Positions 5,841 through 23,672 of a stretch of 64,000 nt of DNA are shown in pieces. The stretch covers positions 320,352 to 384,351 of the forward strand of contig JADJSV010000018.1 of assembly GCA_016711505.1 (NCBI GenBank), read 5' to 3'. Origin of the DNA: Bacteroidota bacterium (GTDB lineage Bacteria; Bacteroidota; Bacteroidia; AKYH767-A; 2013-40CM-41-45). Every line of letters begins with the position of its first letter. Positions within the stretch are counted from its first letter, which is position 1. A program made the translations under genes and the position numbers. The notes under the pieces were generated by a model. That model searched no databases. It was not told the origin of the DNA and worked only from the letters and a program-made list of their open reading frames with translations.

Positions 5841-5880
5841 GGGGATAGTTTCTTAGAAAATTATCCCCTTTTTTATTTTT
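5841..5880 (+). terminator. putative rho-independent terminator after the 4214-5818 gene
   Basis: GGGGATA ... TATCCCC stem followed by TTTTTTATTTTT. Confidence 0.45.
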
Positions 5881-8393: not shown

Positions 8394-8519
8394 AGTATAA
8401 AGGTAGAGTTCAAAAATTTATTCTGCAACTACTATCAGCAGAATAAAATTTTTACATTGCAGACTTATCAGAACGAATGCACCTGAATTTGAGTTTTTAC
8501 TTAATTGAACAAACAAATA

Positions 8520-10517
8520 ATGAAAAGTAAGTTACAATACATCTTTCCCGTCTTACTCTTGATTTGTGGTTTGTATTCAATGCCATTAAAAATTATAGAA
8601 ACCAATCTTTCTAAAATGCCCGGAGATCTGGGTGATACCCGATTTAACAATTATATTCTTGAACATGGGCATAAGTATCTGACAGGGCAAATTGATTCGT
8701 TTTGGAATGCACCATTTTTATATCCATATAAAAACGTAACTGCATTATCAGATAATTTAATCGGAACACTTCCCATTTATAGCGTATTCAGATTTGGGAC
8801 AGACCGGGAAACTTCATTTTTGTTATGGATTATCTCGCTCTTTGTACTTAATTATATTTTCTGTTTCATTGCATTGAAAAAATGGTCCGGAGAAAATATC
8901 TTATCCTCCGTAGGTGCTTATATTTTTGCCTTTTCAATTTATAATCTGGGTCAATTTGATCATGTTCAGGTATTGCCAAAATTTATTGCACCACTTGTAA
9001 TTTTCTGGTGCTGGAAGTTTCTTTCTGAAGGAAAGTCAAAGTATTTTATTTTTATGTCACTTGGACTTATCTATCAGTTTTATTGCGGGATCTATCTTGC
9101 ATTTTTACTGATCTACATTCTTATGTTTCTAAGCATTTCCTATTTTATTGTTTACAAAGATTTCAAAGTCTTTTCTGGGTTTAAAGAGAAGAAATATTTA
9201 GCAACGTTAGCAGTAACAATTATTGCATCAATCGTACTTTTGTTTCCATTGATTCAACCATATCTAGATGTTGCAAAAACAATGGGTATGCGCAAATTTG
9301 AATCAGCATTTTCGACCATTCCGCATCTCAGATCTTATTTTTTCGCAACTCCTTCATCCGCAGTATGGAATGTGTTATCTGATCATGGTATCGGTAAACT
9401 CGATGTTTGGTGGAATCACTATCTTTTTGTTGGGGCACTTCCTTGGATTGGAGTCTTAACAACAGTCTTTTTGTTGTTTTTTAAAAAGAACGATAAACTT
9501 AATAAGAAGCAGAATCTATTTTTCTTAACTACATTATTTCTTTGTGTAATTTTTTGTCTGAACATTAATGGATTCACTTTATATGAATACATTTTTAAAA
9601 TTCCCGGATTTTCATCAATGCGATCTATTGACCGAATTATTAATCTGGAAGTATTTGTTTTCATTCTTGTATTTGTATTTTCATTTAAAAGTATAATTCA
9701 GGCATTTCCGAAAATGCAATTCTTACTTTACTTATTGCCGGTTTTAGTAGTTATAGAAAACCAGGTTGATGCTAATAAAGTAAAGAGATTTGATAAAGAA
9801 ACATCTCAGTCTCGTATAGCCGATGTTAAGGCGAGAATCGAAAAACAGTATGATCCAAAATATTCTGCAATAGCCTACATGGCATTTCATACTTATGTCG
9901 GCCCGGAAGAAAGCGGTTATATGGGATATGTCGCAAGGGCACTTGATGTAATGATCGCTTGTCAGGAATTAAATATTAAATGTGTAAATTCTTATACCGG
10001 TTTCGATCCGGGTAATTATCTGAATTTTTTCTATGAGCCACGTGACAGAACACTCAAAGAATGGTGTGAATTCAATAAGACGGATTATTCTTTAGTTCAA
10101 CATTTGAACGATTTTGGAAGGAAAGAAATTAGCCGGACGAAGATCAATCTAAAAGCATTTAATGGGAAATATATTTCCGCGATTGATAATGAAAATCCGG
10201 TGCTTGAAGCCAATAGAGATATTGCCCAAAGTTGGGAAACGTTTTTAATGATCAGATTTGAGAATGGAGAATGTATGATAAAGGCTCAAACAAATTTGAT
10301 TTTGCATCTGGAGAAAGATTCGATGTCTGAAATTAAAGCGAATAAAATAACAGGATCAGAAGAAGAAACTTTTCGGATTATTGAATTTTCAGATTCAACA
10401 GTAGCATTTCAGGCAGCTAACGGAAAATATCTGACCGTAGATAGTTCAACATTCCGAATTGCTGCAAAAGCCCCGGTCGTGGGAGTTGCTGAAAAATTCC
10501 GGATAATTGAATTGTAA
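8520..10517 (+). CDS. polytopic membrane protein (GT-C-like N-terminal region) with C-terminal fascin-like beta-trefoil repeats
   Basis: More than 10 hydrophobic segments in the first 430 aa. The C-terminal 150 aa contain repeated 'NGKY[IL].A.D......FRIIE' units characteristic of fascin-like beta-trefoil folds. The supplied ORF starts at TTG 8505; ATG at 8520. Confidence 0.5.
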   Translation: MKSKLQYIFPVLLLICGLYSMPLKIIETNLSKMPGDLGDTRFNNYILEHGHKYLTGQIDSFWNAPFLYPYKNVTALSDNLIGTLPIYSVFRFGTDRETSFLLWIISLFVLNYIFCFIALKKWSGENILSSVGAYIFAFSIYNLGQFDHVQVLPKFIAPLVIFWCWKFLSEGKSKYFIFMSLGLIYQFYCGIYLAFLLIYILMFLSISYFIVYKDFKVFSGFKEKKYLATLAVTIIASIVLLFPLIQPYLDVAKTMGMRKFESAFSTIPHLRSYFFATPSSAVWNVLSDHGIGKLDVWWNHYLFVGALPWIGVLTTVFLLFFKKNDKLNKKQNLFFLTTLFLCVIFCLNINGFTLYEYIFKIPGFSSMRSIDRIINLEVFVFILVFVFSFKSIIQAFPKMQFLLYLLPVLVVIENQVDANKVKRFDKETSQSRIADVKARIEKQYDPKYSAIAYMAFHTYVGPEESGYMGYVARALDVMIACQELNIKCVNSYTGFDPGNYLNFFYEPRDRTLKEWCEFNKTDYSLVQHLNDFGRKEISRTKINLKAFNGKYISAIDNENPVLEANRDIAQSWETFLMIRFENGECMIKAQTNLILHLEKDSMSEIKANKITGSEEETFRIIEFSDSTVAFQAANGKYLTVDSSTFRIAAKAPVVGVAEKFRIIEL

Positions 10518-10910: not shown

Positions 10911-12494
10911 ATGAAAATTCATCCACACAATGCCTCTATGGAGGTGAATTCTGTTTACAAAACAAAACGCTTTGTAAATAAAATCAAAACAAGTTTAATA
11001 CTTGTTTTCTCAATTCTATCCCTAAATGGAATTGTATCAGCAAACAATCTTCAGATCACCGGTATCTCCGTGAATCAGACTGCAAAGACAGTTTCTTTCT
11101 CTGTGTCATGGGATAATAGCTGGAACATTGCCGGTACCGGAGTTCCTAACAACTGGGATGCAGTATGGATCTTTATTAAGTATAAAGATTGTAATGCTAC
11201 ATCAGCTATTCCATTTACACATGGAGCTTTAAGTAATGTACTTGCGAATCATACTATTCCTGCTTCACTGGAAGCAATGACTTCTGTCAACTGGAATGGT
11301 ACATCAGGTATTACTGAAAGCGTTGCTCAAGGTGCAACACTTGATTTTACGGATGGTATTATGTTGCGTCCAAAAGTTACAGGTACCGGAACTCTGGCTG
11401 CCTCAACTGTTGTACTAAACGTTCCTGCCCTTCCTGGTCCGGGAACAAACTTAAGCGTAAATGTTTTCGGAATAGAAATGGTTTACGTTCCTCAAGGTGA
11501 TTTTACAATTGGTGATGGTAGCGGTACTACTGCTGCTGTAAATAGTTTCCTTGGTTCAAACGTTCTGAACTCTGCATCTATGACAGTTACAGGTGCTTTT
11601 GAAACAGGTACATCTACTTTTTATATGAACAACGAACCGGTTGGTTCTGTACTTACAGTAAATAACGTATCGGCTGCTTTTCCAAAAGGCAATTACGGAT
11701 TCTATATGACAAAGTATGAAATTACAGAAGGTCAGTATATGGAATTCCTGAACACACTTGGAACTGCACAACAAACTACCCGTGCACCGGGAAGCTTTGG
11801 TACAAACAGAAATCAACTTCAACAAGCAGTACTTCCATATTCAACAACTCGTCCCGACAGAGCTCAAAACTTTTTAGGATGGGCTGATGTTACTGCATAT
11901 CTTGATTGGGCATGTTTACGTCCGGGATCAGAAACAGAATTTGAAAAAGCTTGTCGTGGTAACGGATCAACTTTAGGTGAATATGCCTGGGGAAATCTTG
12001 TTATCGCCCCGGGAACAACTTTCGCAGGTGCTGCAACGGAAAATGGAACAGAAACTTTCATCGCCGGAAATTGCACATATGGTAACGGTACTTATACTAA
12101 CGGTGACGGTGCCATTGGACCTGCACGTGTTGGGATCTATGCTACATCAAGCAGTACTCGTCAGACAGCAGGTGCTTCTTATTTCGGTATCATGGATATG
12201 AGTGGAAATGTAATGGAATATTATGTTGGTATTCACTCAACGCCTGCTTCTAATGCTTTGACTCGTACATGGGGAAATGGAGCACTTGATGCTGCAGGTC
12301 AACATGATGTTACTACATGGCCTGCCAATAACACAACTGCGACTAACGGTAGTGCTGCAAACTTAATCGGTTTACGCGGCGGTGCTTATAACAACGGTAT
12401 TGCACAGCTTCAGGTATCTGATAGAAACTATATGTATAATAACCCGAACCAAATTGGTAGAAATGCTCAAAATGGCGGACGGGGTATCAGATAA
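10911..12494 (+). CDS. secreted FGE-sulfatase (SUMF1) fold protein, GldJ/GldK-like
   Basis: Signal peptide, then FGE-domain signatures: IEMVYVPQGDFTIGDG, YMTKYEITEGQYMEFLN, GWADVTAYLDWACLRPGSETEFEKACRGNG..YAWGN, GIMDMSGNVMEYYVG, GLRGGAYNN. No Cys in the last ~130 aa, where FGE catalytic cysteines would sit, so probably non-catalytic like GldJ/GldK. Confidence 0.65.
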   Translation: MKIHPHNASMEVNSVYKTKRFVNKIKTSLILVFSILSLNGIVSANNLQITGISVNQTAKTVSFSVSWDNSWNIAGTGVPNNWDAVWIFIKYKDCNATSAIPFTHGALSNVLANHTIPASLEAMTSVNWNGTSGITESVAQGATLDFTDGIMLRPKVTGTGTLAASTVVLNVPALPGPGTNLSVNVFGIEMVYVPQGDFTIGDGSGTTAAVNSFLGSNVLNSASMTVTGAFETGTSTFYMNNEPVGSVLTVNNVSAAFPKGNYGFYMTKYEITEGQYMEFLNTLGTAQQTTRAPGSFGTNRNQLQQAVLPYSTTRPDRAQNFLGWADVTAYLDWACLRPGSETEFEKACRGNGSTLGEYAWGNLVIAPGTTFAGAATENGTETFIAGNCTYGNGTYTNGDGAIGPARVGIYATSSSTRQTAGASYFGIMDMSGNVMEYYVGIHSTPASNALTRTWGNGALDAAGQHDVTTWPANNTTATNGSAANLIGLRGGAYNNGIAQLQVSDRNYMYNNPNQIGRNAQNGGRGIR

Positions 12495-12560
12495 TCTCTT
12501 TATCATTTTATCCTTTCTCAAGGACCTTGGATGATCCTTCGTGGAAAGTGTTATTGAAAT

Positions 12561-12598
12561 AGTAATAGGACAGAGATATTACATCTCTTCCTATTACT
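12561..12598 (+). terminator. putative terminator hairpin downstream of the FGE-like gene
   Basis: AGTAATAGGACAGAGAT / ATCTCTTCCTATTACT imperfect 16-bp stem with ATTAC loop, followed by an A/T-rich stretch. Confidence 0.35.
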
Positions 12599-12734
12599 TA
12601 TTTTAAATCATTACAAAAAAATTTAATAGTAAAAGTTTAATCACTTTAGCAGTTGTACTGGCTGATCGTTGATTGCATTAATTAGATGCTTCCGGTTTGA
12701 CAATGCATGTTAGTGTTGATCTATAATAAAATTT

Positions 12735-15279
12735 ATGCGGACCAGTTTTATCCTCGCCTTAATTATTTTATTCAGGCTCCCTGCATTTTCGCAATACAGG
12801 GGAGGAGATTATAGTGGTTCTGCTGTTTCAATTAGTTCTTGCGTTTCAACTTACTCACCATTTTCAGGAGGATCAAATGACGGATCTTCATTGTCGCAAA
12901 CTGTTTCCTGTTCAAGTTCAGCAAATATTTATAAAGGTGGTTCATATGACGGCATAGGTGTCAGCATGACTTCATGTACAATGGTTGAAATCTACAAAGG
13001 TGGATCTTACCAGGGTTCTTCAATGAGCGCGATTGTTTGTGCAACTACAATTTACAGTGGCGGAGCTTTCAATGGCGGTGGATTTAATTCATGGAATAGT
13101 TGTCAGGGAAATATTTATAATGGCGGAAGAAATTCCGGATTTTCAGTTTACAAATTTGAATGTACTGTTGCAGCTTCCGTTTTTACCGGTGGTGCATACG
13201 ATGGTTTCAGCCTTAGTGCCGGTACATGTGTTACAACTTCGCCACCAATTTATACCGGTGGTCCATACGATGGTTTTTCTACCAGTAAAACATCTTGTAT
13301 AGTTTCGGCTTCTATTTTAAAGGCGGATCTTATAGTGGCTATGCAGTAGATACAGCTTCTAATTGTTTCTTTTCTTCACTCAGTATATTTTTTGGTGGCC
13401 CATATGATGGTTCTTCTGTCGATAAATTTGCACCATGTCCGACTTCATTTTCAATTTACTCAGGCGGATCTTATGATGGATTTCATCTTAATAGCATCTC
13501 TTGCCCGCCACCAATCACTGCAATTTATCAAGGCGGTTCATATGATGGATTCAGTTTGAATTCAGCAAGCTGTGCTGTTGCTGCCAGCATTTATAAGGGT
13601 GGCCCCTATGATGGATTCTCATCTTCAGGATTCTCATGTGTGTATTCAAATCTGATATACAGAGGTGGACCTTACGATGGAACTTCAGAAGATGGTGTCG
13701 CTTGTCCGGTTGCTGCCAGTATTTTTATTGGTGGATCTTATGATGGGTATGCAAGTAATCCTTTTGTTGCTTGTCCAAGCCCGATCAATATTTATAACGG
13801 CGGACCTTATGATGGTTTCAGTTCAAGTAGCACAACATGTATTTCAGTCTCTGTGTTTACCGGTGGCTCGTATAGTGGGTTTTCTGTAAATACGGTTTCA
13901 TCATGTACATTTGCTGCCAGTATTTATTCAGGTGGGCCTTACGATGGAAATAGTCAGGATTTCACAACTTGTCAGTCTACAATTTATTCAGGAGGTTCAT
14001 TCAGCGGTTATTCAATGGACAGTTACATCGCATGTCTGGCGGATATCTACAAAGGTGGTTCTTATGATGGCCATTCTATTAATTCAACTTTATGTGCACC
14101 ACCAATTACAGCAATTTATCACGGTGGTTCGTATGATGGTTTAGCAGTTGGAAAAATTTCTTGCTCTGTTGCTGCTACTATATTCTCCGGTGGACCTTAT
14201 GATGGACACTCAGTTATTGGAACTTCTTGTCCATTACCAATTACAGCTTTTTACAAAGGCGGTCCATACCAGGGAAGTTCTGTCAGCAGTCTCACTTGCG
14301 GACCGATGAGTATTATCTTCAAAGGCGGAGCATATGATGGTTCTTCCAATTCAGGAACTTCATGTGCTGTTGCTGCGACGATCTACAAAGGAGGTTCTTA
14401 TGATGGCTTTGCAAATAACGGTATTGCATGTTTACCGGTTGCACAAATTTTTACCGGAGGTTCTTATAATGGATTCTCAAATAGCAAAACCACTTGTCCA
14501 TCGACAGTTTCAATTTACTTCGGAGGATCATATGATGGCTTCTCTGCAAATATTGATGCTTGTCCTGCACCACCGGGATCAATTTTCAGTGGTGGACCAT
14601 TCGATGGACATTCAAAAGGTGTTAGAAACGAATGCGCAACATTATTTACATTCCTGAATGGAGGAATTCACGACGGTGGTGCACTTGCAAGTACAGGTTG
14701 TTTAATTCCGCTGCCGGTTGAATTACTTTATTTCAATGCACAACTCACAGATCAGGAAACAAATCCTAATGTGCTTTGTACATGGGCAACTGCAAGTGAA
14801 ACAAATAATGATTTCTTTACTGTAGAAAAAACGATCGACTTCTTTATATATGAAAAAGTTGGTATCGTTCCGGAAAAGGTAACTCAACACACTTCCAGTC
14901 TTATTCATTTGTTGATCCGAGACCATATCCGGGTACTTCATACTATCGTTTGAAACAAACTGACTTCAATGGCAATGAAGAATACTCAAGAACTGTTTCT
15001 ATAGATCTGAATAAACCTGATGAATTAACTTTGGAAGTTTATCCGAATCCGGTAGTCGGTCCGTTCATTAACGTTAGCATTTCCGGAAGTCGAAATCAGG
15101 AAGTCGAACTGAAGATCGTTGATATGCTTGGTAAAGAGCAATACTCTCAAAACATCACATTGAACGACAGAGTTGCTTCCGTTGCGATCAAGAATGATCA
15201 CTTCATTTCAGGAATCTATTATGTTATTGTAAATAGCGGAACGAAGGACAGGGTGTTTAAGAAAATTATGATTCAATAG
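12735..15279 (+). CDS. Cys-periodic 'GG-x-Y-D-G' tandem-repeat cell-surface protein with type-A T9SS C-terminal sorting domain; split into 3 ORFs by two 1-nt homopolymer frameshifts
   Basis: Signal peptide, then about 28 tandem 23-26-aa repeats (C-x5-7-[IV][YF]-x-GG-[SPA]-[YF]-[DNSQ]-G-x-S). They are followed by the conserved pre-CTD module (LPVELLYFNA...FTVEK..D...YYRLKQTDFNGNEEYS) and a Por-secretion tail (LEVYPNPVVG...GIYYVIV). Frameshifts at 13315-13321 (T4/A3 run) and 14874-14877 (A4 run) join ORFs 12735-13349, 13295-14953 and 14950-15279. Confidence 0.6.
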
Positions 15280-15296
15280 TATTCTGGAGTTATATT

Positions 15297-15391
15297 TTAA
15301 CACTAAGGTCACTAAAATTTGTCACAAGAACACTTATGAAAAAAGCATCACTTGTGCTCTTGTGCTAAAAATTTAGTGATCTTAGTGTTAA
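15297..15391. repeat. MITE-like palindromic element, copy A
   Basis: TTAACACTAAGGTCACTAAA ... TTTAGTGATCTTAGTGTTAA terminal inverted repeats (20 bp, 1 mismatch) enclosing a nested inverted repeat (CACAAGAACAC / GTGCTCTTGTG). A second copy lies at 37853-37958. Confidence 0.5.
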
Positions 15392-15402
15392 AATTAATAG
15401 GT

Positions 15403-16220
15403 ATGCTTAAACGGATAATACCATCCACAGGAGAATTACTACCTGCTATCGGTCTCGGCACGTGGCAAAGTTTTGATGTTGACGAAAGCAATCAATCAAA
15501 CTTAATTCCGGTTTTGGAGGAGCTGCACAACAGTGGCGGAAGATTGATCGATAGTTCACCAATGTATGGAAGATCTGAAACTGTTATTGGAAACCTCACA
15601 TCCAAATTAAAATCAAGAAATGATTTTTTCTACGCAACTAAAGTCTGGACAACCGGAAGACAAGCCGGTATCGATCAGATGAAATCATCTATGAAAAAAA
15701 TGCAGCGGGAGAAAATCGACTTGATGCAAATTCATAATCTGCTCGACTGGAAAACGCATTTGCCCGTTTTAAGAGAATGGAAAGAAGAAGGAATTATAAA
15801 ATACATTGGCATCACGCATTACCAGGATTCAATGCATGATGAACTTGCCAAAATAATTTCTTCAGAAAAAATTGATTTCGTTCAGTTTAATTACTCAATC
15901 GATTCATTGCATGCGGAAAAAGATTAATGAAAGTTGCCGGAGACAATGGTGTTGCAATTTTGATCAACAGACCATTTGGTGAAGGGAGATTGTTTGAAAA
16001 AGTAAAAGGAAAAAAATTACCGGAATGGTGTATTGAAGTCGGAATAAAAAACTGGAGTGAGTACTTTCTGAAATTTATTCTTGCTGATCCTAATGTTACA
16101 TGCGTTATTCCTGCAACTTCTGATGTTCAACATGCAGTAGAAAACTATCGTGCCGGTTCAGTTTCTATTCCGGATTTCGATTTGAGTCGGAAAATGGTCA
16201 ACTTTTTGAATTATATCTGA
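15403..16220 (+). CDS. aldo/keto reductase (one 1-nt frameshift in an A5 run at 15917-15921)
   Basis: AKR signatures (GLGTW, SPMYG, IGITHY); ORFs 15352-15927 and 15927-16220 rejoin as ...HAEKRLMKVAGDNGVA after adding one A. ATG at 15403; the upstream ORF extension overlaps the MITE-like element. Confidence 0.7.
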
Positions 16221-16304: not shown

Positions 16305-18829
16305 CTAGTTTTTAACGAACATTGCGCTACTGGAAAAATCGTTCGAGGATAATTTGATTAAATATATACCATTTTCAAGATGAGTGACATCAATCTTGAC
16401 TGAATATTCAGAACCTGTCACATCTATCATTTCAACAACTCTTCCAGTCATGTCCAAAATTTGGATTCTGATTGAGCCGATTCTTATTTGTTGAAAAATA
16501 TTATATATGTTCAATATTTCATGGCAAGGATTTGGGCCAATTGAAATTAAATCACCGTGAAGATTATTAGTATTTGTACATATGTCAACAATAATGGATA
16601 TGCTGTCTGATTGAATACAGTTGTTACTATCTGTAACAATGACAGTAGCTAGCATTGTATCTGCCACAGAAGAAGTGTAATTGAAAAACGGACCACTGTC
16701 TCCGTTCTGCCATAAATAGCTTGTGAAATTTGTTCCTGCATTTAGAATTATCGATTGGTTTATACAGATGGTCGTATCAGGCCCTAAAGTTGGTGGTGCA
16801 ATTGAATTTCCTATAACACTTATTGTGTCAGTGGACGAACATTGATTTGAATCTATTAAAGTACAGAAATAGGTTCCGGGATTGTGAATGATAAATTGTG
16901 AACTGTTGGATCCGTCATTCCATAGAATGGAATCGGAAGAAGGAATATTAAGTTGGATGGAATCATTTAAACAAAGAACCCTATCAGCGCCAAGTTGGAT
17001 AAACGGCAGCGGGAGAATAAGAATTTCATTTGATCTTACATTGTTTGCACAAGATGTGTTGACTTGTATCTGAAAATTGCTGGAAAAGGAATTACAAAAA
17101 TTGGTTGATTTGAAGTAGAAATAACTGACCCATCTTCTACCAGACTGTACAGATAATTACCTGATAATGGTGGCGAAACTATTGCAACAAGTGTATCTCC
17201 AATACAAGCTGTAGTTGGAAACAATGATAGAGTATGATTATTGCCACGCAAAGTAAATGATGTTGATATTTGTTGGCCGATGGAATCTGTAACAGTTAGA
17301 ATAAACATTGTATTACTATCAGGAAAAAATATTGGCATCTCTGAATTTGGATATAGAATATTTAAAGTGTCATTCCAGTTTATTGAATATGGTGGATATC
17401 CACCTGATATAGTTATCAGACCATAATTTGGACTACGCTGACAACTAATCGTGTCACTAAAATTAATAGAAACTGTAAGTATATTGACGGTGTCAATTAC
17501 CCATGAATAATGTTCGTATTTATGGTTTAACGGATAGTGATATCTATCTGAATAAATTAAATTATCATTTACGTCGTATTGGAAATAGTAATTATAACCA
17601 TCTGAACCTGTACGATCACTTAGTACTTTTCCTGTTGAATTGTATTCAATGCCTGTGGAACTGAGATATGTCAGCACCCCGGAATTGAATGAATAGTATG
17701 TTATCAAATAACCTCCAAAATTTCCGAAAGTGTATTTTGTAAGTTTAACAGTGTCGTTGCATAATCCACTCGGACATTCAATTTCGAAACGATCAATGGT
17801 TGATGGGGCTTGGGTATAATCGAATAGAAATAGGTTGGTGTTCTGATAAACTCCTGAAATATATTGCTGACATGTAGAATCAATCGGTTGTCCTATCGGA
17901 TCTCTTGTGATTAGATAACGGTAGGTTGTATATGTTGGAATTCCTGAAACAGATGTGACTTCATTGATGTCAGTCTGTATTAAAAAATTATTATTATCAT
18001 AAGTGTTTATTGTAATAGTTGAATCAGGTGTTCCTGTAAAATAATTAATCTGCAGACTTTGAGAAATATTTCCGGCTGCATTGAATTGATAATTTGCAGT
18101 ATCTAATAGGCTAAATATGCCGAAATTCATTCCCCTAAATCCATATATTTCAAGTTGACCACTTGAAGAATATTGAAATGATTGCCGATAAGTTTCAGTG
18201 AGAACTGTATTGTTGATGGACTGAATAGTAAAAAGTATGACGTTGCCATTAATATCATATGTACAAGTACGCCTTTCTTTAAGTATTGGAATGCCGGTCG
18301 GAGAATAAAAATAGTATTCCCTGAGGATTGCTCTCCCAAATGCATCACGAGTTATCTCCCATTTGTCATAAAAAATATAGGATGTAGAATCAATTTGAAA
18401 TCTGTCAATTGTAATTGTATCATTATTGGCATCTCTATCAACTGTTGTTAAAATATGAAGCTTGAAATCGAATAAACTGTCAATTGTCAGTTCGTCATTT
18501 AGGTCATAGTAATAATGATGAACACTATTTAAAGCATACCCTAGCGTATCAATCGAAAGAAAATTACTATCTGTGATCAAATTCCAATTCAAGTCATAAT
18601 AATAATTTACATATTCCCCATAAGATTGAGGATAATAAGCATCAAAAGTACGTCCAACTTTTTCTGCTTTTATTAAATGTCCTTCGGAATCATATCTTTT
18701 TACACCATAACTTTGAGAATATAAATTTCCGCTCACTTCCAACTCACCTCTGGTTATTGCAAGGCTGTCTTGTCCTGATGAGTATATAAAATTGAGAATT
18801 AGAATTATAAACGGGAAAGTTGTTTTCAT
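16305..18829 (-). CDS. YD-repeat plus SprB-repeat T9SS cargo protein (frameshifted between 16667 and 17036)
   Basis: Signal peptide; YD-repeat-like units (RYDSEGHLI, TYDINGNVI, QYDVNDNLIYSD); SprB-type motif SGGYPPYSINW; the downstream fragment 16305-16667 carries the Por-secretion tail (GIYLIKLSSNDFSSSAMFVKN). Confidence 0.55.
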
Positions 18830-21085: not shown

Positions 21086-21460
21086 TCTGCTTGATTGGAA
21101 AACACATTTACCTGTTTTAAGAGAATGGAAAGAAGAAGGAATTAAAAATTATATTGGCATCACACACTATCAGGATTCAATGCATGATGAGCTTACAAAA
21201 ATAATTTTTTCCGAAAAAATTGATTTTTCCAATTTAATTATTCAATCGATTTACTGTACTAAGAGAAAAAATTATTAAAAGTAGCCGGAGACAATGGTGT
21301 TGCAACTTTGATCAACAGATCATTTGGTGGTGGCAGGTTGTTTGAAAAGTAAAAGGGAAAAATTACCGGAATGGTGTATTGAAGTCGGAATAAAAAACTG
21401 GAGTGAGTATTCCCGACTATAATTTAAGACGGAAAATGGTCAATCAACTTAATTTAATCT
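21086..21460 (+). pseudogene. decayed duplicate of the 3' end of the aldo/keto reductase gene at 15403-16220
   Basis: I estimate 85-90% nucleotide identity to 15740-16220, with a roughly 100-bp internal deletion and stop codons in frame. Confidence 0.6.
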
Positions 21461-21463
21461 GAC

Positions 21464-23572
21464 CTATTTAATAATTGAAATCTTGAATTGATAATTAACC
21501 TTTCCACTTTCTGAAAGTAATTTTCCTACATAAATACCATTTGAAAGATTCTCAAGTTCAATATCAGTTTCTGCTGATTCTAGTTCTGCTGATTTTACGA
21601 ATATTCCTTGTAGATCATAAATTTTAAGTAAAATATTTTCATTAATACTTTCCGGCGTTTTTAAATGTATGTTTCCATTCGTTGGATTAGGATAAACTGA
21701 CAATTCTTTTTCTGAATTAGAAATATAACCAACACCAAGAATAGTGTTTTCCCGCCATATTCCTTGATATTCTGAACCAATATATAATCTGTCATTAATC
21801 AATGTCAAATTTCTTGATTCAAATGGAAGGTTTGAATATAATGGCGTCCAGTCAATTCCATTATTAGAAGAAGTGTAAATTCCATTCTTTCTTAGCAAGC
21901 CAATTAACTCGCCATTTCTTCCAACGATTGAGTGTGGAGTAAGCTGGGTTCCTCTGTGATCTTGGCACACCGTTTAAAGGAGATTGATTCCATGTTTGTC
22001 CGGAATCCAAACTTGTATAGAGTGTTGAAGCAGTTGTCGAAATAAGTATATTATTTACAAAAGTTGTATTCGAAAGATATAAATTATTAGTCTGGGATGG
22101 AATGCAGTATAAATATGTCCAAGATGATGTTACGGGATCAAACTTAAAGATGCCGCCAGTAAATGTATTTGCAATTAGATCATTTCCTATCGCGCATAAC
22201 GTACCGGAAAAATTTGAACTAGTAGTACATCCCGAAATGATTGGAAGAGGAGGTAGTGACGTCCAATTATCCCCAAGGTCATCACTATAAAAAAGTTTAG
22301 TGCTTGTTTTGCAATAGAATCTGTTATTTATTTTGATAGGTGGACTGTATAAAACGACGTTTGAACTCGAACCTGTATTTAATCCCTGTTGCCAGGTAAT
22401 CCCCGATCGTAACTTCTAATGAAGTAAAGATTTGTAGAAAAGATGCTGTCGCCGCTTACAATTATTGATGACATATTTCTATTTATAGTATCCCAATTTA
22501 GGCCATCAGTTTCACTTTTATTAAGAATATTTAGTTCAGCTGTGCAATACAAAACATTGCTATTCCCTTCTAAATTTAAAATGAATTGACCTTTGATTCC
22601 AGAACATGATAAATATGCAGAGTCGAGAGATGGAATATAGTGGACAAGATTGTAAAGTTCATTGCTAAAGGATAATTCATCTCCATTTGGCAAAGTATAG
22701 CGATTCTGATATCGTACTTGATATGGAATTGGAGAAGCTGTCCAGGTTATACCAAAATCACTAGACACAGTATAATTATTTGATCGATCTACCCAATATA
22801 ATAAATTGTCTGCTGACCGAAGGAAGAAAAATATTGTTGAGTCAATTGTCACTGATGTATTCCATGTTATACCTCTGTCTTCACTTTTCATAATTGATAC
22901 AAAACCTGGTGGACCCCATTTATATCCGAATACTAAAGAGTCAATTATAAGTTTATGTTGAATCTGATCTAGTGAGTCTATTCTTGAAAAATTTAAGGTA
23001 GTATCAGAAATATAATGTTTGGACTCAAGAGAATCGAAGCTCACTAGATAAAGAAAATTGTTGCTGAAGACGGATCCTACAAACTCTCCACCATCAGGCA
23101 TGTTTATCGGATAATAAGTGCTGCCAAAATCGTCAGATTCAAGAATAGTTGGAGCTGCACTTACAATTATTTTATTGCCAAATCTATTTAGCGAAGGTTC
23201 AATTATATATGTGTATATTAGTGTATCAAGCGGCCAAGTTTGGCCACCATCAAAACTTTTTGTCACATGTATACTATCGTACGAATCATAAACTTCAATT
23301 CCGGAAAAATAGAGAAGTACTATGGTATCAGAAGATGTTAACATAGAACAAATCTGCTTACCTTGAAAATCGGAAAATGCTACCCAATTTCTCCCTTCAT
23401 TTGGAGAGATATACAAATTCTGCATTGATCCGCAGAGGATACCTGTTGAAATTTTTGCAAAACAATTTGGAAAGCATCCCTCTGGACCATTTAGTTGTGT
23501 GAATTGGGCCATTCCGTTTAGACTTGAAAACAGGAAAGTTGCAAGTAATATGAAAGTGTTTTTTAGGTTCAT
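21464..23572 (-). CDS. BNR/Asp-box repeat T9SS cargo protein (frameshifted between 21970 and 22379)
   Basis: Signal peptide; Asp-box motifs (SFDGGQTWP, SEDRGITWN, SSDFGITWT); C-terminal fragment 21464-21970 carries the Por-secretion tail (ELSVYPNPTNGNIHL...GIYVGKL). Confidence 0.55.
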
Positions 23573-23672
23573 TTTTAAATATTCTATGGACTTAAAAATA
23601 TGGAAATTCTTTCAATCAGCTAACTTTTGCTTTAAAGCATTGTTTATGAGTACATAAAACCCACTAAAAAGG

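Follow-up and report, generated by a model that had tools for sequence, protein, structure and literature searches.

A conserved two-gene module in Bacteroidota pairs an exported FGE-fold protein with a repeat-bearing cargo of the type IX secretion system

We analysed a 64,000-nucleotide stretch of DNA from a Bacteroidota bacterium (contig JADJSV010000018.1, positions 320,352 to 384,351; hereafter the window), in which a gene for an exported protein with the fold of formylglycine-generating enzymes (FGEs) precedes a gene for a repeat-bearing type IX secretion system (T9SS) cargo. These two genes are a conserved two-gene module. With moderate confidence, we propose for the FGE-fold protein the role of a dedicated partner without catalytic activity, which would bind the repeat array of the cargo and, in the Bacteroidota branch of the window, would also form a disulfide between its Cys94 (C94) and the repeats. 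No published description of the gene pair or of the repeat motif was found in the literature searched, motif string included.

The pairing is seen from either gene. A search with the full-length FGE-fold protein returned more than 1576 clusters at 90% identity, whose database names are all generic, either “SUMF1/EgtB/PvdO family nonheme iron enzyme” or “formylglycine-generating enzyme family protein”. Scanning species-representative genomes gave at least 571 matches, from which 80 loci were kept; 73 of these extend 400 bp or more past the FGE-fold gene. In 43 of these 73 loci the FGE-fold gene is followed, typically 0-250 bp away, by a co-oriented gene with the motif directly past its signal peptide (…AQ/Y-x-G-G-x-x-D-G…; here and below a slash marks the cleavage site). 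A giant cargo (2000-3300 aa) that starts with QPANDxC and holds the motifs internally is found in 11, and a tandem FGE-like paralogue followed by a motif protein in 4. The remaining 15 mostly have the same arrangement, overlooked by a simple classifier (L010, L013, L014, L021, L022, L073 and L076), with degenerate motifs accounting for L026, L045 and L065. Only 12 of the 1465 other open reading frames (ORFs) in these loci hold two or more motifs, and nearly all are the same partners. With the cargo as query, 4 of 4 repeat-bearing T9SS cargos have a family member directly upstream (hidden Markov model E 1e-64 to 1e-177). An earlier sequence-only reading of the window had suggested a two-gene module and had set co-occurrence in other genomes as its check: nearly all 73 loci and all four cargo-side look-ups are paired.

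The surroundings and contents of the module vary. Genes flanking the pair differ among the window and L001 (an independent metagenome assembly), the related locus L003, and the Flavobacterium loci. Several genomes have more than one pair (L008 and L038; L019 and L021; L086), each copy with a cargo of its own, and the passengers of the partner cargos are unrelated (Ig_7, PKD, SprB, NosD beta-helix, Fn3) or almost lacking, the motif and the C-terminal sorting domain (CTD) being what they have in common. A Rosetta-stone search for fusions of an FGE-like unit with the repeats found none, its sole long match being a tandem double FGE-like protein.

We also noted several variants of the arrangement. 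Two pairs stand in tandem at L086 (1-7947), tandem FGE-like paralogues precede one cargo in L048, L057, L061, L068 and L076, and in P0261 (1507 aa) two FGE-like units are fused head to tail. The cargos of the giant-cargo subgroup (L007-L014, L016, L027, L041, L053, L066 and L071) open with a galactose-binding-like domain, QPANDxCxNA (a weak match to GBD_T9SS_assoc), and have their GG..DG…C motifs internally, not at the N-terminus. In Flavobacterium (L031, L033, L036, L052, L055 and others; for example L031, 5357-9925) the pair directly follows genes for two histidine kinases of the TPR type and a response regulator of the LuxR type, which suggests two-component control of the module there. Some family members come from contigs assigned by binning to Omnitrophota, Planctomycetia, Lentisphaeria and Verrucomicrobiota (L017, L020, L040, L049, L070, L074, L075, L082 and L083), groups in which no T9SS is known; such contigs reflect either mis-binning or a wider range of the Cys-less subfamily, and at L017 and L020 a small DNA-repair-like ORF is found downstream in place of a motif cargo. 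Cultured strains carrying the pair are Flavobacterium dankookense DSM 25687, F. solisilvae, Aequorivita viscosa and Saprospira grandis DSM 2844.

The cargo gene of the window follows the FGE-fold gene in the same orientation after a gap of 240 bp (12495-12734), as first read, and encodes a repeat array, a spacer domain and a type-A sorting domain (Table 1); the intact L001 copy scores 35.8 bits for the latter. Its N-terminus, MRTSFILALIILFRLPAFSQ/YRGG, resembles, as judged by eye, a typical Bacteroidota signal peptide, and the array starts two residues beyond the predicted cleavage site (…AFSQ/YRGG). Repeats are spaced 20-24 aa apart (mode 22), and each has exactly one Cys, 15-16 residues past the aromatic residue. 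No Pfam or NCBIfam family covers the repeats, and the spacer domain has no significant Pfam match here, with faint fn3 matches on relatives. An AlphaFold2 prediction of the array reached a predicted local distance difference test score (pLDDT) of 45.5, usable only as a regular pattern with two short strands per repeat. In this low-confidence, solenoid-like sketch and in their tandem Gly-rich GG…D turns the repeats are like the RTX beta-roll; they differ from RTX GGxGxDxUx in their period of about 22 (20-24) aa instead of 9, in the GGx[YF]DG core, in having one Cys per unit, and in export by the T9SS instead of the type I secretion system.

The window splits this cargo into three ORFs, each in a different frame (12735-13349, 13295-14953 and 14950-15279). 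Its first break lies at T_TTA_AAG, which formally fits the X_XXY_YYZ pattern of a -1 slippery heptamer. The single cargo protein of the sequence-only reading therefore needed two restored bases, while its one Cys per repeat holds for all 29 repeats. The broken frame could be taken to mean that the two genes adjoin by chance and that the cargo gene is a pseudogene in decay, is phase-variable or undergoes programmed frameshifting. We consider this highly improbable: the pairing is conserved from both the FGE side and the cargo side, L001 and the relative L004 stay open across both breaks and L005 across the first, and the second site has no proper heptamer. L001, 99.3% identical to the window over 16 kb, has a single 848-aa cargo ORF; L005 is 98% identical and in frame across the first site; the cargo genes of L003 and L004 are intact. 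Programmed -1 frameshifting is also countered by identical 1-nt under-calls in at least four unrelated genes of the window. Single-base indels relative to L001 lie at 5874, 5881, 13315, 14872, 15917, 17084, 19209, 23663, 23666 and 24446, nearly all in or beside homopolymer runs of A, T, G or C, and six 1-nt under-calls split genes, the cargo being counted twice. The others so broken, through A6 to A5 and A5 to A4 under-calls, are an aldo-keto reductase (15917; ORFs 15352-15927 and 15927-16220), a minus-strand T9SS gene (17084; 16305-18829), the start of an SprB-like gene (19209) and a suf gene (24446). Because L001, L005 and the relatives are in frame, and similar under-calls break at least four other genes, the cargo frameshifts are homopolymer under-calls of the assembly, not biology. 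One such error lies inside the FGE-like gene of L001 itself, and ORF calls anywhere in the window need caution.

The upstream partner has two domains. Its sole Pfam match is FGE-sulfatase (PF03781; 49.4 bits, E 6e-13, residues 262-438), its FGE-fold domain spans about residues 185-527, and the four motifs first read from it lie at residues 265 (YMTKYEITEGQYMEFLN), 323 (GWADVTAYLDWAC), 426 (GIMDMSGNVMEYYVG) and 489 (RGGAYNN). A predicted signal peptide (about residues 1-44, …SLNGIVSA/NNLQIT) is type I in appearance, and the …A/NNL… junction is conserved, without a Cys, in the family. No lipobox was found in the first 60 aa by the pattern [LVI][ASTVI][GAS]C (no dedicated predictor was run), and Pfam detected no T9SS CTD. 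As an exhaustive phmmer query, the N-terminal domain (N-domain) alone returned 441 cluster representatives, nearly all proteins of 480-590 aa with the domain at the N-terminus; on these sequence searches the combination of N-domain and FGE fold is a fixed architecture, to which the N-domain is private. An AlphaFold2 model from a 64-sequence alignment (pLDDT 91.7, predicted template modelling score 0.89) has an all-beta domain (about residues 45-180) packed onto the FGE-fold domain (about 185-527).

Cys94, in a loop past the third strand of the N-domain, is the only invariant Cys among 64 close relatives. Because no other Cys column accompanies it in the family alignment, C94 has no obligate intramolecular partner. 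Its presence follows that of the repeat Cys. All partner cargos share the motif core [YF]xGG..[DS]G, but not the Cys: most Bacteroidota loci have it in every repeat, and it is missing from a few Bacteroidales and from the loci assigned to Ignavibacteria, Planctomycetia or Lentisphaeria. Among 77 genome copies of the FGE-fold gene, 53 have C94 and 24 lack both it and its loop; the repeats bear Cys in 50 of 50 C94-positive loci and are Cys-less in 10 of 12 C94-negative ones (Fisher 6e-10, phylogeny not accounted for).

We found no sign of the known chemistries of the fold. Significant Foldseek matches are FGEs, pFGE, CalU17, EgtB and OvsA, and in the predicted structure the protein is about equidistant from all FGE-fold subfamilies, catalytic and non-catalytic. 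Titles of matched FGE entries in the PDB name C336S and C341S mutants; these two residues are the catalytic Cu(I)-binding Cys pair in the C-terminal segment of human FGE. The corresponding segment here (…LRGGAYNNGIAQLQVSDRNYMY…GGRGIR) has no Cys; since the HMMER alignment to solved FGEs spans the central motifs only, this is a regional absence of Cys and not a residue-by-residue comparison. The cysteines of the protein are residues 94, 335, 348 and 388, leaving the last 139 aa Cys-free where the sequence-only reading had seen none in the last 130 or so, and there is no conserved Cys column in the C-terminal third of the family in alignments of 64 and 77 sequences, in line with the lack of the catalytic pair expected from that reading. 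The restored 848-aa cargo contains no C.P.R, the sulfatase C-x-P-x-R. Classical FGE catalysis was rejected on both counts, as was EgtB/OvoA-type catalysis: sulfoxide-synthase chemistry requires an N-terminal DinB-like helical domain with a three-His iron site, which is replaced here by the all-beta N-domain. Because the C-terminal Cys are absent and a beta-sandwich stands in place of the DinB iron domain, neither formylglycine nor sulfoxide-synthase chemistry is supported, and the earlier speculation that an FGE-like protein might act on the periodic Cys loses its formylglycine form.

An enzyme of another kind might nevertheless be at work. It would modify every repeat in the periplasm, ahead of export by the T9SS, for instance by cross-linking or oxidising Cys or Tyr/Asp, and Cys94 would act as its nucleophile or bind a metal. 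The strict conservation of a short motif and its one-to-one pairing with the protein recall an enzyme and its substrate; six polar residues of the family (D83, H104, K268, R300, E381 and R417) are invariant, kept together with C94 across sequences about 35% identical; and the true enzymes FGE, EgtB, OvsA and SenA are among the top structural neighbours. We nonetheless think such an enzyme unlikely. Besides the missing copper-binding pair and the all-beta domain where EgtB and OvoA need their iron domain, one clade that lacks both C94 and the repeat Cys is still paired, so that Cys chemistry is not the core function. The FGE-fold proteins without catalytic residues studied so far (PorK, GldK, GldJ, pFGE and the variable proteins of diversity-generating retroelements) are, moreover, binders (PMC12421860).

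Close precedents are the lipoproteins PorK, GldK and GldJ of the T9SS ring and the gliding track, in which an FGE fold without active-site cysteines is a docking hub (PMC12421860). Two of them form disulfides: Cys343 of GldK and Cys356 of PorK are bonded to C-x-C tails on SprF and PorG, which links outer-membrane proteins to the track (PMC12635249). That our FGE-fold gene is simply the canonical gldJ or gldK/porK, with the cargo beside it by accident, is hardly credible. It matches the GldK/PorK model TIGR03525 only partially, with 16.9 bits (E 0.003) against a cut-off of 350 bits; NCBIfam gave no GldJ match at E<=0.01, and there is no lipobox; the protein has no RGC motif, its conserved Cys being C94 of the N-domain; no gldL, gldM or gldN follows, as a gldKLMN/porKLMN operon would have, the genes 3' being the repeat cargo and then the aldo-keto reductase; and several genomes have multiple, cargo-specific copies. 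The sequence-only reading, which held that identity with canonical gldJ would undo it, is partly supported: the pair is conserved and the partner lacks the catalytic Cys, and this partner is not GldJ or GldK itself.

Compared with GldK and PorK, the present protein appears soluble and without a lipobox, has a distinct N-terminal beta-sandwich, and is found in multiple copies per genome, each specific to a cargo; its conserved Cys belongs to the N-domain and theirs to the FGE domain, within an R-G-C-F loop (PMC12635249); and its partner would be the N-terminal repeat array of a cargo, theirs being outer-membrane barrel tails or PorN/GldN. With FGE/SUMF1 it shares the fold and the fold-defining motifs (…EWEYACRG…, G.MDMSGNV.E and RGG…R…G.R), and FGE, too, acts on a secreted protein that functions with it, at a short peptide motif containing a Cys; it differs in lacking the copper-binding Cys pair, in its extra N-domain, and in a partner that has no CxPxR and whose Cys is dispensable in one clade. 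Among non-catalytic binders with an FGE or C-type-lectin fold, namely pFGE (SUMF2), PvdO and the retroelement variable proteins TvpA, TaqVP and Mtd, none is known with a repeat-bearing T9SS cargo or with this N-domain.

We suggest that the FGE-fold protein is exported by Sec as a soluble protein with neither lipid anchor nor T9SS CTD, and that its cognate cargo is a T9SS type-A substrate whose repeat passenger begins at the mature N-terminus. The FGE-fold protein would bind the repeat array as a chaperone, adaptor or co-passenger, without catalysis, its FGE fold serving as a docking module as it does in PorK, GldK and GldJ. In the Bacteroidota branch of the window the unpaired Cys94 would form a disulfide with the repeat cysteines, on the model of GldK Cys343 and PorK Cys356 with the cysteine tails of SprF and PorG. 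The analysis shows the fold, the missing catalytic Cys pair, the pairing of the genes, the motif and a Cys co-variation at the level of clades, and we infer the physical binding, the disulfide and the cellular site of the interaction. More specifically, Cys94 may couple covalently to each repeat of the cognate cargo or modify it chemically, which would make the [YF]xGGxxDG…C array a new T9SS recognition tag; we find this doubtful. If true, Cys94 would be a cargo-specific disulfide handle and would extend the tethering principle of GldK and PorK from machine components to substrates; alternatively, the FGE fold would carry out a copper-independent, Cys-directed modification.

Several points weigh against a binding partner with a Cys94 disulfide. 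C94 is in the N-domain and not at the position of the GldK and PorK cysteines, making this an analogy of function and not a homology. The topology is a problem too: the cargo must cross the outer membrane, while the soluble partner bound to it covalently would be periplasmic. The invariant charged residues listed above could be equally compatible with an active site. All C94-less sequences form one neighbour-joining clade, so that the co-variation approximates a single evolutionary event and the Fisher p overstates the association; two members of that clade, L078 and L080, keep Cys-bearing repeats. Finally, a terminator-like hairpin stands between the two genes in the clade of the window.

This hairpin has too few G-C pairs to be called by a consensus terminator scan. 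In L004 a hairpin unlike it in sequence occupies the corresponding place (about 11645-11692), and the 511-nt spacer of L003 is extremely structured (z = -8). Together with the inverted repeat past the cargo stop, the hairpins bracketing the cargo gene may be terminators, attenuators or palindromic elements, and the two gene products could be made in unequal amounts. Rfam gave nothing real in the module region, only spurious sub-threshold matches to miRNA precursors at 15294-15394, and scans for sigma-70 promoters and for TAnnTTTG did no better than chance. In most other loci the gap between the genes is below 100 bp, and across 33 loci it correlates with repeat number (Spearman rho 0.67, not phylogeny-corrected).

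The roles of the two proteins might also be the reverse of those we favour. The FGE-fold protein would then be the payload, for example a lectin-like surface receptor, one copy of which would dock on each repeat in the periplasm; the CTD-bearing carrier would bring the assembly out by way of the T9SS and anchor it at the cell surface. Such a scheme is consistent with the minimal cargos and with the FGE gene lying upstream. Many partner cargos, however, have large passenger domains of their own, the correlation of gap with repeat number lacks a correction for phylogeny, and we know of no precedent for hitch-hiking through the T9SS; we consider this scheme quite unlikely.

Table 1. Features of the module in the window
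Feature	Position	Strand	Remarks
Gene for exported two-domain FGE-fold protein, 527 aa	10911..12494	+	C-terminus GGRGIR
N-terminal beta-sandwich domain, about aa 45-180/185	11043..11465	+	Outside Pfam; essentially exclusive to this architecture
Cys94 codon TGT	11190..11192	+	Invariant in 64-sequence alignment; no conserved intramolecular partner; missing from one clade
AT-rich hairpin, stem of about 23 bp, then U-rich tract	12554..12604	+	RNA fold; 60 nt past FGE-like stop codon; terminator-/attenuator-like
T9SS type-A cargo gene, 848 aa with two bases restored	12735..15279	+	Reads as three ORFs in the window
Array of 29 repeats, about 22 aa each, [YF]-x-G-G-x-[YF]-[DSN]-G-x7-C	12795..14710	+	Outside Pfam and NCBIfam
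Frameshift site 1, T4 in window vs T5 in L001	13315	+	Homopolymer under-call; L005 open across site
Spacer domain LPVELLYF…WATASETNNDFFTVEK…YYRLKQTDFNGNEEYS	14711..15036	+	Common to many partner cargos; Fn3-like look
Frameshift site 2, GG in window vs GGG in L001	14872	+	Homopolymer under-call
T9SS type-A C-terminal sorting domain	15037..15273	+	PF18962 41.2 bits, TIGR04183 41.6 bits
27-nt inverted repeat, 93% complementary	15294..15394	+	Directly past cargo stop; likely terminator hairpin

Two further regions of the window lie around the module. The upstream neighbour (8505-10517) encodes a 670-aa multi-pass membrane protein with a C-terminal DUF7910/fascin/FRG1-like beta-trefoil (Pfam); because it is present in L001 and not in L003, we place it outside the module. 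Downstream, about 2.5 kb (21090-23620) is missing from L001, whose position 16081 joins 16315, and appears to be a strain-level insertion or deletion. Two ORFs on the minus strand, 21464-21970 and 22379-23572, lie in this segment; the first ends in an apparent T9SS sorting tail, and the two may be one broken T9SS cargo gene.

FGE-fold proteins have recently been shown to form the structural core of the T9SS ring and of the gliding track, with partners held by disulfides. The module suggests a second recruitment of the same fold, as a soluble partner dedicated to cargo. What we propose as new is such a partner, with an N-domain of its own, recognising an unannotated repeat tag; this tag is carried by many T9SS substrates not otherwise related, with at least 571 matches in genomes at the species level and over 1500 clusters of proteins. 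If confirmed, the module would add an accessory layer to T9SS cargo handling and would give names to two unannotated families, the N-domain and the repeat.

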